A stretch of 10,921 nt of DNA from a virus. The number at the start of each line of letters is the position of its first letter. Position 1 is the stretch's first letter. A program made the translations under genes and the position numbers. The DNA is taken from UHGV virus genome UHGV-0414405; one strand, 5' to 3'. Below are positions 1,388-5,098 of the stretch, piece after piece. The notes under the pieces were generated by a model. It was not told the origin of the DNA. It saw only the letters and a list, made by a program, of their open reading frames with translations, and ran no database searches.

Positions 1388-1606
1388 ATGATGATTTGCC
1401 CACTGTGTGGAAGTGCCGCCCATACTCGCAGCAGTTTTCAGGTATCTTCATTGACCAAAGAGCGTTACAACCAGTGCCAGAACATTAACTGCAGCCATAC
1501 TTTTGTTACCCATGAAACTTTTGTTCGTTCGATTGCAACGCCAAAAGAGTCAAATCCGGTTCAGCCGCATCCTCATAAATTTAAACAGGTGGGTTTGCCG
1601 ATTTAA
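1388..1606 (+). CDS. ogr: Ogr-type late-gene transcriptional activator (zinc finger), 72 aa
   Basis: ATG at 1388 is preceded by GGGGAGAG (1372-1379). Translation MMICPLCGSAAHTRSSFQVSSLTKERYNQCQNINCSHTF... has Cys-x2-Cys-x22-Cys-x4-Cys spacing, the Ogr/Delta zinc-finger signature, at the right size and position downstream of D. The listed ORF 1355..1606 is an in-frame upstream extension without an RBS. Confidence 0.9.
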   Translation: MMICPLCGSAAHTRSSFQVSSLTKERYNQCQNINCSHTFVTHETFVRSIATPKESNPVQPHPHKFKQVGLPI

Positions 1607-1670
1607 ATGGCGACATAACTACATGATTTAAAACTATACTTTTCTATAAGTTGAGGTTAAATTAACAATG

Positions 1671-1847
1671 CCTGACGTTAGCGGGGATTTATCCCCACTC
1701 CGTAGATATGTAGTTTGTCGCTTTGCGACTGCGGACCGATTACCTGATTGCCATGTAATCGGACGCCGACTTGTTAAGCTTTCTGGGCTAACTGGTTGTT
1801 ATTTTTTATTTAGTTAGGGCCATGCGCTTGCGCTAAGAGACGTCAGG
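1671..1847 (+). ncRNA. Candidate retron-like structured ncRNA (msr/msd-like) upstream of the RT gene
   Basis: A non-coding stretch is bracketed by an interrupted inverted repeat: CCTGACGT-TAGCG (1671-1683) and CGCTA-agag-ACGTCAGG (1831-1847). It begins with TTAGCG, as in classical retron msr around the branching G. Local hairpins: GGGGAT/ATCCCC (1683-1696), GTCGC-ttt-GCGAC (1717-1729), CCGATTAC-11 nt-GTAATCGG (1736-1762). No long frame-1 or frame-3 ORF here. Exact ends and strand are inferred. Confidence 0.35.
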
Positions 1848-1867
1848 TATCTATGGAGGAACAAGTT

Positions 1868-2041
1868 ATGGATACAAACGAACTTGGCTTAGTTAAGGCG
1901 CGTGTTGAACTGATCACCGCTATGCTCAAATGCGCAACCGCGTTTGTTGGCTTAGTTGGTGCGGTTTACGCCGTTCTTAACATGGCCTTCAACTACAACA
2001 ATTTAACTCATGACAATAGAAGTTCAAAGGTGGGAAGATAA
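1868..2041 (+). CDS. Small hypothetical protein (57 aa) with one predicted hydrophobic helix; overlaps the RT start
   Basis: ATG at 1868 with GGAGGA (1855-1860) 7 nt upstream. Translation MDTNELGLVKARVELITAMLKCATAFVGLVGAVYAVLNMAFNYNNLTHDNRSSKVGR contains a ~17-residue hydrophobic segment. It overlaps the RT ORF by 32 nt in another frame. It could instead be the displaced N-terminus of a frameshifted RT, or non-coding RNA. Confidence 0.35.
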   Translation: MDTNELGLVKARVELITAMLKCATAFVGLVGAVYAVLNMAFNYNNLTHDNRSSKVGR

Positions 2042-2783
2042 ATTTGAGATTAAGCCCGGGGTTTGGGTTTATGTCCCAAGCGTTGAGGCACGTAAAGTCG
2101 GAGGGAAGATACTTCAGGCTGTCAGAAACAAGTGGATTCCGCCACTCTATTTTTACCATCTAAGAACTGGTGGGCATCTTAAAGCTGCCAGATTACACTT
2201 AAAAAGTGATTTTTTTGCCGTTGTTGATATTAAACAATTTTTTCAGTCAACGAGCCGTAGTCGTATCACCCGTGATCTAAAGAGCTACTTCACCTATTCT
2301 CAAGCGCGGGAAATCTCAACATTTTCAACTGTAAGAAACTTGTCCCATAGTCCACATAAGCATGTCCTCCCTTTTGGTTTTGTTCAATCTCCAATACTTG
2401 CAACCCTCTGCTTAGATAAAAGTTATTTTGGTAGCTTACTACGCCGATTGAACAAACATCATGATCTCAAGCTAAGTGTGTTTATGGATGATGTGATCAT
2501 CTCGTCAAACGATTTGGCCCAATTACAAGCGGCTTACGACGAAGCACTAGTGGCAATGCGTAAATCTGGTTATCAAGCCAACATGAGTAAAACTCAGGCA
2601 CCATCGTCAAAGATTAGCGTGTTTAATTTAACTTTGAGTAAGGGAGTTATGAAAGTCACATCTCAGAAAATGAGTGACTTCCTGATTGATTTCTATTCAA
2701 GCAATTATGAGCCGCACAGAATAGGGGTCAAAAACTACGTCGAAGCTGTTAATCCAGGGCAAGCGAAACTCTTTAAGTTGTAA
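2010..2783 (+). CDS. Reverse transcriptase, compact retron-like (257 aa)
   Basis: RT motifs in canonical order: motif A SDFFAVVDIKQFF (Asp at 2226-2228), motif B' LPFGFVQSP (from 2367), motif C FMDD (2481-2492), motif D/E QANMSKT, then KVTSQ where retron RTs carry VTG. An in-frame TAA at 2004-2006 fixes the start at ATG 2010, which has no obvious SD. GC is lower than in neighbouring phage genes. Confidence 0.8.
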   Translation: MTIEVQRWEDKFEIKPGVWVYVPSVEARKVGGKILQAVRNKWIPPLYFYHLRTGGHLKAARLHLKSDFFAVVDIKQFFQSTSRSRITRDLKSYFTYSQAREISTFSTVRNLSHSPHKHVLPFGFVQSPILATLCLDKSYFGSLLRRLNKHHDLKLSVFMDDVIISSNDLAQLQAAYDEALVAMRKSGYQANMSKTQAPSSKISVFNLTLSKGVMKVTSQKMSDFLIDFYSSNYEPHRIGVKNYVEAVNPGQAKLFKL

Positions 2784-2855
2784 TTGCGATCGCATGTAGT
2801 AGGAACTGGGCTTGACTGAATGCCTGCCGCCATTTTGCCGCCACTACCAAAGAAA

Positions 2856-2883
2856 AAGGGGCTACGCTTTCACGTAACCCCTT
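2856..2883. terminator. Bidirectional intrinsic terminator hairpin next to the ssrA-derived att core
   Basis: Stem AAGGGG(c)TACG / CGTA(a)CCCCTT (2856-2866 with 2873-2883), loop CTTTCA. T-rich tracts follow on both strands: GATTTATTT on + and TTTCTTTGG on the minus strand. On the minus strand it lies directly 3' of the tmRNA CCA end, so it likely doubles as the ssrA terminator after integration and as the RT-operon terminator. Confidence 0.5.
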
Positions 2884-2891
2884 GATTTATT

Positions 2892-2936
2892 TGGTGGAGC
2901 TGGCGGGAGTTGAACCCGCGTCCGAAATTCCTACAT
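2892..2936 (-). other. Phage attachment-site core: ~45-nt copy of the 3' end of ssrA (tmRNA)
   Basis: Reverse complement of 2892-2936 reads ATGTAGGAATTTCGGACGCGGGTTCAACTCCCGCCAGCTCCACCA, which matches my recollection of the 3' terminus (T-arm, acceptor, CCA) of enterobacterial tmRNA. The match ends abruptly at 2937. Only the 3' tail is present, flanked on both sides by phage genes. Confidence 0.6.
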
Positions 2937-2960
2937 ACCATTATTACTATAGCAAAAACA

Positions 2961-2988
2961 TTAACTTGCGTTTAAAATCAGCAAGTTA
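2961..2988 (-). terminator. Candidate intrinsic terminator for the int-membrane-protein transcript
   Basis: Inverted repeat TTAACTTGC (2961-2969) / GCAAGTTA (2981-2988) with an 11-nt loop, 34 nt downstream of the minus-strand ORF stop at 3022. On the minus strand it is followed by TGTTTTTGCT (reverse complement of 2951-2960). Confidence 0.45.
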
Positions 2989-3021: not shown

Positions 3022-4068
3022 TTAATGCTCTGTCGCCAATCTGTCGCCATTGTAGGTCAACGAAGGTTGAGCCTTCCCTTTGTTTGTTACAATTTCATCA
3101 AAGATAGCTGGATTATTATCTTTCAGTAATCTTGCTAGTATAATGATTTGCCCAGACGAGCCATCATCCTTGAATGAAAGGAAATTATCGGTAATATCAA
3201 GAATATCAATGGTAAATTTGAAGTAGGTTTCAATTGTATCGCCAAGTTCAATGCTGGACATGAAGTTGGTAATCATTTCATATCCATCAAAGTATAAAGT
3301 TGCATGTTCATTTAACTCCATTGGAGTTAGGCAAAGCATTCGATTAAGTTCGGATAAGTGTTTTTCTATTGAATGAAGAGATTGCATTTGACGGATTAAA
3401 ACTTCGTCTAACTGAGAGCCACGATTAGATGAATGTATCTTCTCTAGGTTTTTTAGTATATCAACCCAGTGATTATTTACTTCACGTATGTATTCTTTAT
3501 CTGTATTTTTAGGCCGTCCCTTCTCTGGTGAGCTATTTATGAAAATATATCTATATAGATGTATTGGGTAGTTAATTTTATAACTTATCTCTTTAGTACC
3601 ATAATGACGTTCGCGTTTAATGGTTTTGTTAGGTAAATTGGTGAAATAATCAGTAACGAACTTTAGATGGCTATAGTAGCTATCAGATAGATTCTTTTGC
3701 TTGGTTTCCTCAATTTGTCGGTTTGTTTGAACTGTGCGGTGTATGTTTGCTACGACAGCAACAAATGGTATGGACAAAGAAAGTAAGGCGATAGGAAGCT
3801 TGCTAATTGCAATGAAATTATTAAAGCCCTCACTATCAAATTGAGGGGAGTGTCCAAGCCAGGAAAATATACCAAAGTATATCGCTGAAAATACAGGAAT
3901 CCTAAGTGATTGTTTAAATAAGTATTGACTTGTTAATGGCCTTTCATCCATGTTAAAGCCTTTTTTTGATACGCATAGATATAATTCAAGGCATATATAT
4001 ATAAAATATATTATGATAAGTAAGTACGATATCCATGGGTATTGTTGGATATAGTTATTAACAAGCAC
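3022..4068 (-). CDS. AT-rich hypothetical membrane protein (N-terminal TM helices plus ~230-aa soluble domain); accessory moron downstream of int
   Basis: Longest ORF begins at GTG 4068, overlapping the int stop by 11 nt (348 aa). The first in-frame ATG is at 3951-3949 (309 aa), preceded by AAAAAAAGG. Hydrophobic segments: IPVFSAIYFGIFSWLG and FIAISKLPIALLSLSIPFVAVVANI, plus WISYLLIIIYFIYICLELYLCV if the longer start is real. Strongly AT-rich relative to the backbone. No motif I can assign to a family. Confidence 0.55.
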   Translation of the reverse strand: MLVNNYIQQYPWISYLLIIIYFIYICLELYLCVSKKGFNMDERPLTSQYLFKQSLRIPVFSAIYFGIFSWLGHSPQFDSEGFNNFIAISKLPIALLSLSIPFVAVVANIHRTVQTNRQIEETKQKNLSDSYYSHLKFVTDYFTNLPNKTIKRERHYGTKEISYKINYPIHLYRYIFINSSPEKGRPKNTDKEYIREVNNHWVDILKNLEKIHSSNRGSQLDEVLIRQMQSLHSIEKHLSELNRMLCLTPMELNEHATLYFDGYEMITNFMSSIELGDTIETYFKFTIDILDITDNFLSFKDDGSSGQIIILARLLKDNNPAIFDEIVTNKGKAQPSLTYNGDRLATEH

Positions 4069-5098
4069 TTTCTAATTTTCTCCATCCAAGGTTAGCAAGA
4101 GGATTTTTGGTTACAGCATCTTCCAGATGGTCGGGAGCGAAGTGGGCGTAAATCATTGTCATTTTTATATCGACATGGCCCAGAATATCGCGCAGCACCA
4201 GTATGTTTCCGCCATTCATCATAAAGTGACTTGCAAATGTATGTCGTAATACGTGTGTGCATTGCCCTTCTGGTAGCTCGATACCAGCTCGTTTTACCGC
4301 ACGTTCAAAAGCTTTCCTACAAGGTGTAAATAATTTCCCCCTATTCTTAGGCAGTTCTTCATATAAATCCTTTGAAATAGGCACTGTTCGGTTTTTCTTT
4401 CCTTTAGTCTTGGTATAAGTGATACGGTATTTTGATACCTGATGACTCTGTAGGTTTTCGGCTTCGCTCCAGCGTGCGCCGGTGGCCAAGCATATTTTTG
4501 CAATCATCAGCAGACTGGGGCTTTGAGAATCAGCACAGGCATCCAGCAGACGTTTAATTTCTTCCGGGGTCAGGAACGCCAATTCACCCTCAGCAATTTT
4601 AAATGTTGGCAGCCCAGCAAGCGGGTTGGGGGCTGACCAGTGGCCCAGCTTTTTCAGTGTACCAAAAACAGATGATAGGTTGCGCTGTTCAAGATTTACC
4701 GTGCGGGGCTTAACGGGCGACATAAGCGTGCCATCTTCATTTCGTACTTCACCTTTTAACCGTGCTTCGCGGTATTTCGTAAACTCACCAGCTGTCAGTT
4801 CTGAGGCGATGGGATCGCCTAGACCATTACAGATAATTCTAAGTTTCGCCATGAGGCGCTTGGGGTCTGCGAGTGTTTGACCATACAGGGAATACCACAG
4901 CTCAATTAATTCTGATAGATGTCGCCGATCTTCCTTTTCCCCTAGCCATGGTTTTTTGTTCACTTCTTCCATTGTGAAGCTTTCAAACGCAATGGCTTCG
5001 CCTTTGGTAGCAAATTGCTTACGCACGCGCTTACCATTGCGTCCATTGGGATAGCACTCACACAACCATTTTCCGTTCGGCTGTTTTCTGATGGTCAT
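4058..5098 (-). CDS. int: Tyrosine site-specific integrase (P2/186-type), 346 aa
   Basis: C-terminal catalytic region CTHVLRHTFASHFMMNGGNILVLRDILGHVDIKMTMIYAH (H-x-x-R ... Y) plus upstream ATGARWSE (Arg box). ATG at 5098-5096 lies 3 nt after the cI stop, consistent with a cI-int operon. Located next to the att core. Confidence 0.92.
   Translation of the reverse strand: MTIRKQPNGKWLCECYPNGRNGKRVRKQFATKGEAIAFESFTMEEVNKKPWLGEKEDRRHLSELIELWYSLYGQTLADPKRLMAKLRIICNGLGDPIASELTAGEFTKYREARLKGEVRNEDGTLMSPVKPRTVNLEQRNLSSVFGTLKKLGHWSAPNPLAGLPTFKIAEGELAFLTPEEIKRLLDACADSQSPSLLMIAKICLATGARWSEAENLQSHQVSKYRITYTKTKGKKNRTVPISKDLYEELPKNRGKLFTPCRKAFERAVKRAGIELPEGQCTHVLRHTFASHFMMNGGNILVLRDILGHVDIKMTMIYAHFAPDHLEDAVTKNPLANLGWRKLESAC

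Follow-up and report, generated by a model that had tools for sequence, protein, structure and literature searches.

Type VI retrons, represented by Retron-Vpa2, Retron-Sen3 and Retron-Eco12, consist of a non-coding RNA (ncRNA), a small protein (SP), a helix-turn-helix (HTH) protein and a reverse transcriptase (RT) in the order ncRNA-SP-HTH-RT. In Retron-Vpa2, one hybrid RNA carries the msr-msd together with the small toxic SP, with the ribosome-binding site (RBS) of the latter held in stem-loops; multicopy single-stranded DNA (msDNA) is undetectable at rest and is induced by phage recombination proteins, and the msDNA, specifically its 5' stem-loop, is needed for the derepression of SP translation (bioRxiv 10.1101/2025.10.22.683967). 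In Retron-Sen3, the HTH protein is the antitoxin to SP, and the trigger is RecBCD inhibition (bioRxiv 10.64898/2026.04.27.721009). Here we describe a locus of UHGV virus genome UHGV-0414405, which was analyzed as a stretch of 10,921 nucleotides (hereafter the window, to which all positions refer) and which carries a structured RNA, an SP gene and a gene for a 257-aa RT. The locus is a self-contained retron-like cassette of three parts that is carried as cargo by a P2-like prophage and belongs to a large proteobacterial family outside the current retron classifications and models. It is probably an unclassified miniature retron-like system that works like the Type VI retrons without the HTH protein, with SP as its translationally repressed effector.

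The cassette resembles the Type VI retrons in the order of its parts, with a structured RNA first, then a small protein of helical or hydrophobic character and then a small RT, on what would be one transcript, and in the apparent burial of the RBS of SP in RNA structure. In addition, both have an a1/a2-like terminal inverted repeat and a conserved hairpin where the 5' end of the cDNA would be templated, comparable to the 5' stem-loop of the Vpa2 msDNA. However, no locus of the window family has a Cro/C1 HTH gene, SP directly overlaps the RT start, and the window RT fails the RT_VI model (63 bits, against 279 for a genuine Type VI RT), is shorter by ~30-40 aa and reads VFN at the position of VTG. 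The initial annotation of this DNA, made from the sequence alone, missed both the close parallel with the Type VI retrons and the helix that sequesters the Shine-Dalgarno (SD) sequence of SP.

More distant systems share other features with the cassette. The window RT can be aligned with that of Ec86 (Retron-Eco1), its H63 falling on the H of NAxxH and its catalysis being of the YxDD type, and both RNAs have an a1/a2 helix followed by the guanosine of UAG(C); however, the window RT is ~60 aa shorter and has VFN for VTG. In contrast to the enzyme held by msDNA in canonical retrons, the candidate effector of the window is a ~50-aa peptide under putative translational control. The hok/sok systems likewise rely on a small hydrophobic peptide, which long-range base pairing within its mRNA keeps from being translated, and are borne by plasmids and prophages, but the window family invariably has an RT and a retron-like template RNA.

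A compact reverse transcriptase probably outside the known retron types

The RT gene (2010-2783, plus strand, as are the RNA and SP) encodes a miniature retron-like RT of 257 aa with the catalytic motif FMDD (Pfam RVT_1, 2e-21), which PGAP annotates as a "reverse transcriptase domain-containing protein". The motif series that the initial annotation had read in this open reading frame (ORF) is present, comprising D73-IKQFF, LPFGFVQSP at residues 120-128, FMDD at residues 157-160 and N191-MSKT. D73, the LPxGxxQSP block, D160, D161, N191, K194, F205 and N206 are invariant across homologues; at the catalytic motif the family consensus reads YMDD or YVDD, and the E. coli copy FMDD. H63 is also invariant and aligns to the H of NAxxH, a motif that in retron RTs lies between RT2 and RT3, although the residues preceding it are AA or VAA, not NA.

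A word-indexed search returned 72 RT homologues with identity down to 33%, mostly of 244-270 aa. Similarly, phmmer against 1.8 billion cluster representatives returned homologues, counted as clusters at 50% identity, in 158 clusters at E <1e-30 and in 320 clusters at E <1e-10, again mostly of ~250-265 aa. The small size of the RT pointed out in the initial annotation thus holds, whereas a truncated copy is at odds with ~158 clusters that are nearly all 250-265 aa long, and the decayed locus offered there as one option is contradicted by a large RT family of uniform length with intact catalytic motifs.

The class of the RT was assessed from profile scores together with profile and sequence alignments. 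Its best PADLOC matches are nearly all retron RT models, with RT_VI first at 63 bits (best E-value within the RT family, 1.9e-24) and the I-B, IX and II-A models nearly equal to it at 48-55 bits. All NCBIfam scores are far below the curated cutoffs: 49.5 bits for retron_St85_RT (cutoff 235), 23 bits for group_II_RT_mat (cutoff 300) and 17.6 bits for Drt3a (cutoff 200). For reference, a genuine Type VI RT encoded on a Bacteroides plasmid reached 279 bits on RT_VI and, on most of the other retron types, 100-160 bits; because the scores of the window RT are low by this standard, the RT family appears to be more distant from all retron types than these are among themselves. When a real Type VI RT served as the query, its close Bacteroidota relatives were all that was retrieved.

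Comparison of the family profile with PDB sequences retrieved only retron RTs at the top (Ec86, Eco8, Kva2, Ec78, Ec67 and Ec83; E 3.5e-12 to 1e-8), with group II RTs at 5e-5. Residues 13-250 of the RT align to residues 59-295 of the Ec86 RT, and hhalign against Type VI RTs gave 98.8% probability and 21% identity for residues 20-250 versus 58-282. No maturase or endonuclease domain was found in the 257-aa RT, and Rfam matched no intron RNA in the window. The profile searches that the initial annotation had recommended thus brought up retron RTs as the nearest relatives, and not RTs of group II introns, diversity-generating retroelements, abortive infection (Abi) systems or the defence-associated (DRT) and UG groups; its alternative of a DRT-type enzyme met with a best UG/DRT match in PADLOC of just 33 bits (UG33). 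As far as sequence comparison can place it, the RT is closest to the retron RTs yet outside every retron type model.

A structured RNA closed by a covarying terminal helix

The structured RNA (1668-1850) is ~180 nt long, msr-msd-like and continuous with the SP mRNA. The upstream region folds more stably than its shuffles (z = -3.0), and the RNA is conserved and covarying in homologous loci, in agreement with the msr-msd/RT-like layout recognized at the outset. The inverted repeat that the initial annotation had placed at 1671-1683 and 1831-1847 is real and covarying, with arms at 1668-1678 and 1840-1850; as the strands of the terminal helix, they are taken to span 1668-1679 (a1, with the core CCUGACG at 1671-1677) and 1839-1850 (a2, with the core CGUCAGG at 1841-1847). 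Just after a1, a conserved UUAGC motif (1678-1682) contains G1681, the candidate branching (priming) G by analogy with retrons.

Several stem-loops are predicted between the two arms. Hairpin 1 (GGGG-AUUUAU-CCCC, 1683-1696) is supported by folds and by a hairpin at the same position across gammaproteobacterial and betaproteobacterial (gamma/beta) loci, and hairpin 2 (GUCGC-UUU-GCGAC, 1717-1729; GUCAC...GUGAC elsewhere) is 91% paired, with compensatory change at two pairs. A long variable stem-loop (1731-1766), which may be an msd-like template hairpin, keeps its stem despite sequence change in relatives of 80% identity. Directly 5' of a2, a GCGC-UU-GCGC hairpin with UAAGAGA (1824-1840) is invariant in 18 of 18 gamma/beta sequences and is presumably where templated synthesis would start.

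This plan recurs in the family as an a1/a2 helix of 7-13 bp, with a1 followed directly by U(U/A)AG(C/G) in most loci (TAG after a1 is invariant in the 18-sequence alignment) and with about 15-40 nt, typically ~20-25 nt, from the a2 end to the SP start codon. Nucleotide similarity to a relative of 86% identity (L031) begins exactly at 1670. In relatives whose RT is 45% identical, the interior of the RNA has diverged and two blocks are nearly unchanged, namely CCUGACGUUAGC and UUAGUUxGGGCxAUGCGCUUGCGCUAAGAxxCGUCAGG.

The sequences of a1 and a2 vary freely with their pairing kept, as in CCUGACG/CGUCAGG, UUUCAGCAA/UUGCUGAA and ACUCUGGCG/UGCCAGAGU. In the 18-sequence MAFFT alignment, 8 of 9 pairs of the helix show compensatory (two-sided) changes and 92.6% of its cells are paired, compared with 28-40% after a shift of the partner strand by 1-3 columns; the covariation score was reached by 0 of 500 shuffles. 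As the helices had been located by searching for complementarity, a control with cognate and non-cognate arms was added, in which the mean best helix was 8.6 bp for cognate arms and 5.7 bp for non-cognate arms (26 non-redundant loci; 0 of 100000 permutations). In addition, a covariance model built from eleven distant non-enteric beta/gamma loci found the window at 1668-1870 over its full length, if weakly (18.5 bits, E ~0.04), and found further loci strongly.

Some further observations concern this RNA. A second UUAGU(U), at 1815-1820, can pair with GCUAA (1832-1836), with which the UUAGC on the a1 side can also pair. Other gamma/beta loci have a UAGGC direct repeat flanking the terminal helix, with the Gs opposed as in canonical retron RNAs. 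Several E. coli genomes carry IS421 (IS4 family) inside the ncRNA at a position corresponding to 1683-1694 of the window, with a 12-nt target duplication of hairpin 1 (locus L003, which is E. coli CM142787, and hits H2, H3, H4, H10 and H18). The insertion parts a1 and UUAGC from the anti-SD segment, the template, a2, SP and RT; priming should be abolished in this allele, and the repression of SP should be intact.

A small hydrophobic protein encoded ahead of the RT

SP (1868-2041), the candidate toxic effector, has 57 aa; it contains the hydrophobic helix CATAFVGLVGAVYAVLNMAF and an NY motif that is conserved. Gene callers place its best start at 1868, behind the SD sequence GGAGG at 1855-1859, and it is called as a gene in identical loci. 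An ORF of 38-77 aa (median 52 aa; 62 distinct sequences) precedes the RT in essentially every locus and ends 4 to 101 nt inside the RT gene. Common to the homologues are a basic N-terminus, a Leu that is conserved near position 8, a helix of hydrophobic or amphipathic character (best 17-residue Kyte-Doolittle mean, with a median of 1.86 over the 62 distinct sequences) and an invariant Tyr in an [N/S]Y motif, and searches of Pfam, PADLOC, NCBIfam, PHROGs and PDB returned no relatives of SP. The initial annotation had seen no co-oriented effector gene after the RT; SP is a co-oriented candidate effector upstream of it, conserved in essentially all loci. As the conserved third part of the cassette, it favours, of the three options given there, a partner encoded by the small upstream ORF.

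In some lineages SP is in frame with the RT and no stop codon separates them, as in K. pneumoniae (P0036, 302 aa), Serratia (P0019, 309 aa) and a Desulfobulbales metagenome-assembled genome (MAG); positions 578-1573 of locus L056 are an example. The K. pneumoniae form is common, with at least 1000 contigs. These in-frame fusions argue for SP and RT acting together or being physically linked.

Two other relations between SP and RT were considered. A programmed frameshift from SP into RT was set aside, as the relative frame is +1 in most loci and -1 or 0 in others. A detached N-terminal domain of a retron RT found no support, since the SP profile is unlike retron RT N-termini.

A second helix that would sequester the SD of SP

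Positions 1848-1858 (UAUCUAUGGAG) contain part of the SD of SP and are complementary to an internal anti-SD segment, CUCCGUAGAUA, at 1698-1708. The ribosome-binding region of SP (1848-1859, including GGAGG) would thus form the 3' strand of an SD-sequestering helix, and it overlaps a2 by 3 nt. Across loci, the bases upstream of the SD vary together with the anti-SD segment, as illustrated by the pairs UCCGUAGAA/UUCUACGGA, CUCUCUGUAC/GUAUAGAGAG, CCUCUAUUCGU/AUGAAUAGAGG, CUCCGUAUGUC/GAUAUACGGAG and CCUCGACUC/GAGUCGAGG, and P2-type relatives of 80% identity show one compensatory exchange from U-A to A-U in this helix. Cognate anti-SD/SD segments gave 8.3 bp, versus 6.2 bp for non-cognate ones (14 non-redundant loci; 0 of 100000 permutations). 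A generic duplex-energy test of the anti-SD over 46 loci was weakly discriminating (-16.7 versus -14.6 kcal/mol), whereas the contiguous-helix test was clear in the gamma/beta lineages.

The order of strands along the RNA is a1, anti-SD, a2 and SD, and hence the two helices cross; their 3' strands, a2 and SD, abut one another and in the window overlap by three bases. To compare the two states, each RNA was folded twice, with one helix forced and the other forbidden and then the reverse. The constrained states were within ~2 kcal/mol or less of each other in 12 of 14 loci (window, -67.2 versus -66.3), and the unconstrained minimum free energy fold contains either helix, depending on the exact ends of the piece that is folded.

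Distribution of the family

A degenerate DNA pattern for the LPFGFVQSPILA block of the RT was used to recover further loci, and it returned 71 genome loci and 34 viral contigs, every one of which encodes an RT homologue. The hosts are Alpha-, Beta- and Gammaproteobacteria and one Desulfobulbales MAG, and the cassette is also found in plasmids and phages. RNA, SP and RT occur together in about 100 loci: a small ORF that overlaps the RT start, preceded by an ncRNA, is present in virtually every one of the 71 genome loci and 34 viral loci, and likewise in the 5 plasmid loci that were examined. Many loci are on plasmids, in prophages or in defence neighbourhoods with AbiE or Abi genes. No conserved third gene or HTH gene was found near the cassette across the family loci examined, and since SP overlaps the RT start, there is no room for a gene between the two.

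A lineage-specific neighbour is present in a Rhizobiaceae subgroup only, in which the RT gene is overlapped at its 3' end by a convergent gene for a protein of 228-250 aa that is predicted to have membrane segments (L008, 3788-4474, minus strand; L010, 3800-4510, minus strand; and six further loci). Pfam, PADLOC and NCBIfam gave no match for this protein, which may be an additional component peculiar to the lineage.

In F-like plasmids, the leading region is home to anti-defence genes and to flm, a hok-like toxin locus. The Pantoea agglomerans plasmid NZ_CP090210 (L007, 668-3756) has the cassette in its leading region, where it follows immediately on ssb-psiB; two further loci (L067 and L019) have cassettes near-identical to that of L007 and downstream genes in common with it.

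Proposed mode of action and alternatives

As the family has the RNA-SP-RT logic of Type VI without the HTH protein, we propose that SP is the effector and is silenced by the RNA alone. RNA, SP and RT would be produced from one transcript. At rest, the anti-SD segment (1698-1708) would be paired with the ribosome-binding region (1848-1858), leaving SP untranslated. In the alternative fold, a1/a2 would close (1668-1679 with 1839-1850) and place G1681 for RT priming on the adjacent invariant hairpin, which would template a conserved 5' stem-loop of the cDNA. Because the two helices have 3' strands that abut or overlap, and because their states are predicted to be nearly isoenergetic, closure of a1/a2 should permit cDNA synthesis and at the same time uncover the SP start. 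This balance might be tipped by infection or by loss of the element, whereupon SP, membrane-active or otherwise toxic, would be made and the cell stopped. In this scheme cDNA synthesis, branching at G1681, the toxicity of SP, the trigger and phage defence are all inferred by analogy with the Type VI retron Vpa2.

Several observations weigh against such a system. In alignments, the RT is ~40 N-terminal residues shorter than retron RTs, and the VTG position of retron RT7 aligns to (V/A)FN, family-invariant at F205 and N206, so that VTG is absent; the KVTSQ that the initial annotation had equated with VTG lies ~10 residues downstream of this true equivalent, VFN. As the RT lacks VTG and these ~40 residues, its priming chemistry may differ. 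No SD of its own is evident for the RT, whose start overlaps the SP end, and RT synthesis may for this reason depend on translation of SP, which would be awkward with a strictly repressed toxin. The anti-SD helix, clear in the gamma/beta lineages, is weak or sits elsewhere in many loci of Alphaproteobacteria. Instead of alternating, the two helices might in principle form together as a pseudoknot, although the abutting or overlapping a2 and SD strands make a compact pseudoknot unlikely. Finally, the scan of 1600-1900 for retron ncRNA that the initial annotation had advised gave no match to an Rfam retron msr or any other family, and a promoter scan found no sigma-70 promoter upstream of the structured RNA.

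Other explanations have to be considered alongside this one. The family might be a branch of the known Type VI retrons that lost its HTH gene, as the ncRNA-SP-RT layout and RBS sequestration match, RT_VI is the top PADLOC model and the HTH is absent from ~22% of catalogued Type VI entries; identity of the cassette with Retron-Eco12, a Type VI retron from E. coli, is also conceivable. In the window family, however, the HTH is missing from every locus examined and not from a minority, the 63 bits on RT_VI are nearly equalled by I-B, IX and II-A (279 bits for a genuine Type VI RT), and the RT has VFN instead of VTG and is ~40 aa shorter at the N-terminus, which makes a derived Type VI branch unlikely. 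We consider it similarly improbable that the cassette serves in post-segregational killing as an addiction module, like the hok/sok type I toxin-antitoxin system, with the RT-RNA pair as a labile antidote or regulator and no anti-phage role. SP does resemble type I toxins (~50 aa, a basic N-terminus, a hydrophobic helix and an mRNA whose own fold would block translation), the family is carried by plasmids and prophages, and the Pantoea plasmid cassette lies in the leading region after ssb-psiB. However, no antisense RNA gene was identified, although no search was made for one, an RT would be a costly regulator for a type I toxin, and a defence role is proven for related retrons that follow this logic; addiction and defence are also compatible.

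It is very unlikely that SP is a non-toxic subunit or chaperone of the RT that replaces its missing N-terminal region, so that the cDNA itself would be the output. The constant overlap of SP with the RT start suggests translational coupling, and the SP-RT fusions in K. pneumoniae, Serratia and the Desulfobulbales MAG, as well as the ~40 N-terminal residues missing relative to retron RTs, would fit such a role. The SP profile, however, has no similarity to retron RT N-termini, PDB or Pfam, and the covarying SD-sequestering helix implies that SP is kept off, which would be unusual for a mere subunit. Least probable by far is a non-retron defence RT of the DRT/UG or Abi kind that uses the upstream RNA otherwise as a template, or a decayed remnant. 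The atypical RT and its weak UG33 match (33 bits) speak for it, but almost every stronger match is a retron model, Drt3a and group II scores are minimal against their cutoffs (17.6 versus 200 and 23 versus 300), and the RNA has the retron-type a1/a2 helix and UAGC; the uniform length and intact catalytic motifs across at least 158 clusters do not agree with a remnant.

A miniature retron-like system working by Type VI logic without the HTH protein, if this holds true, would add to the 13 catalogued retron types a lineage that the PADLOC and NCBIfam models miss; as they miss it, the cassette is likely to go unnamed in genome annotation. Full-text literature searches turned up no description of the cassette family. 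Tentatively, it might constitute a fourteenth retron type and the smallest known (~1.1 kb, with an RT of ~255 aa), in which one bistable RNA couples closure of the priming helix with unmasking of the RBS of a peptide toxin, so that no HTH-like repressor is needed. The cassette would then be a minimal natural version of the Type VI logic, and the RNA-switch hypothesis is testable on a 1.2-kb clone. In addition, an RT of ~255 aa with an adjacent template RNA is among the most compact RTs known, which is of practical interest for retron-based genome editing.

Prophage context of the cassette

At the start of the window lies the final portion of a P2-like prophage, where gpD (197-1297) precedes ogr (1388-1606, plus strand; Pfam Ogr_Delta, 7e-22), the late transcription activator and last core gene of the prophage, which is called as a 72-aa gene in identical loci. 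Beyond the cassette lie the ssrA terminator and a 3' fragment of ssrA that forms the att core (2856-2982, minus strand, with the fragment at 2892-2982), as judged from a terminator scan and the Rfam tmRNA 3' end. The position given in the initial annotation, between ogr and the ssrA-derived att core, is therefore borne out.

Homology breaks against phage records delimit a segment of ~1.3 kb from the ogr 3' end to the att core (1573-2889, plus strand), within which the co-oriented parts of the cassette take up ~1.1-1.2 kb (1668-2783). Near-identical P2-like phages of Klebsiella match positions 1-1572 of the window at 99.7%, then stop and lack the cargo, whereas 13 other phage records carry it up to 2889; the segment is accordingly regarded as accessory cargo. 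It is present in 28 of 5426 complete E. coli genomes, and several viral contigs, from other P2-like phages in which gpD and ogr have diverged, keep the order gpD-ogr-cassette. In P2-like phages, the ogr-att junction is thereby marked as a cargo site.

A second integrase-bearing element begins beyond the ssrA fragment. This element lies in tandem and has its integrase at 4058-5098; between the integrase gene and the att fragment is an ORF of 348 aa (3022-4068, minus strand), which matches phrog_17460 (5e-156, of unknown function) and, weakly, the PADLOC "2TM effector" model (2e-4), and which could be another cargo or defence gene at an int-att junction.

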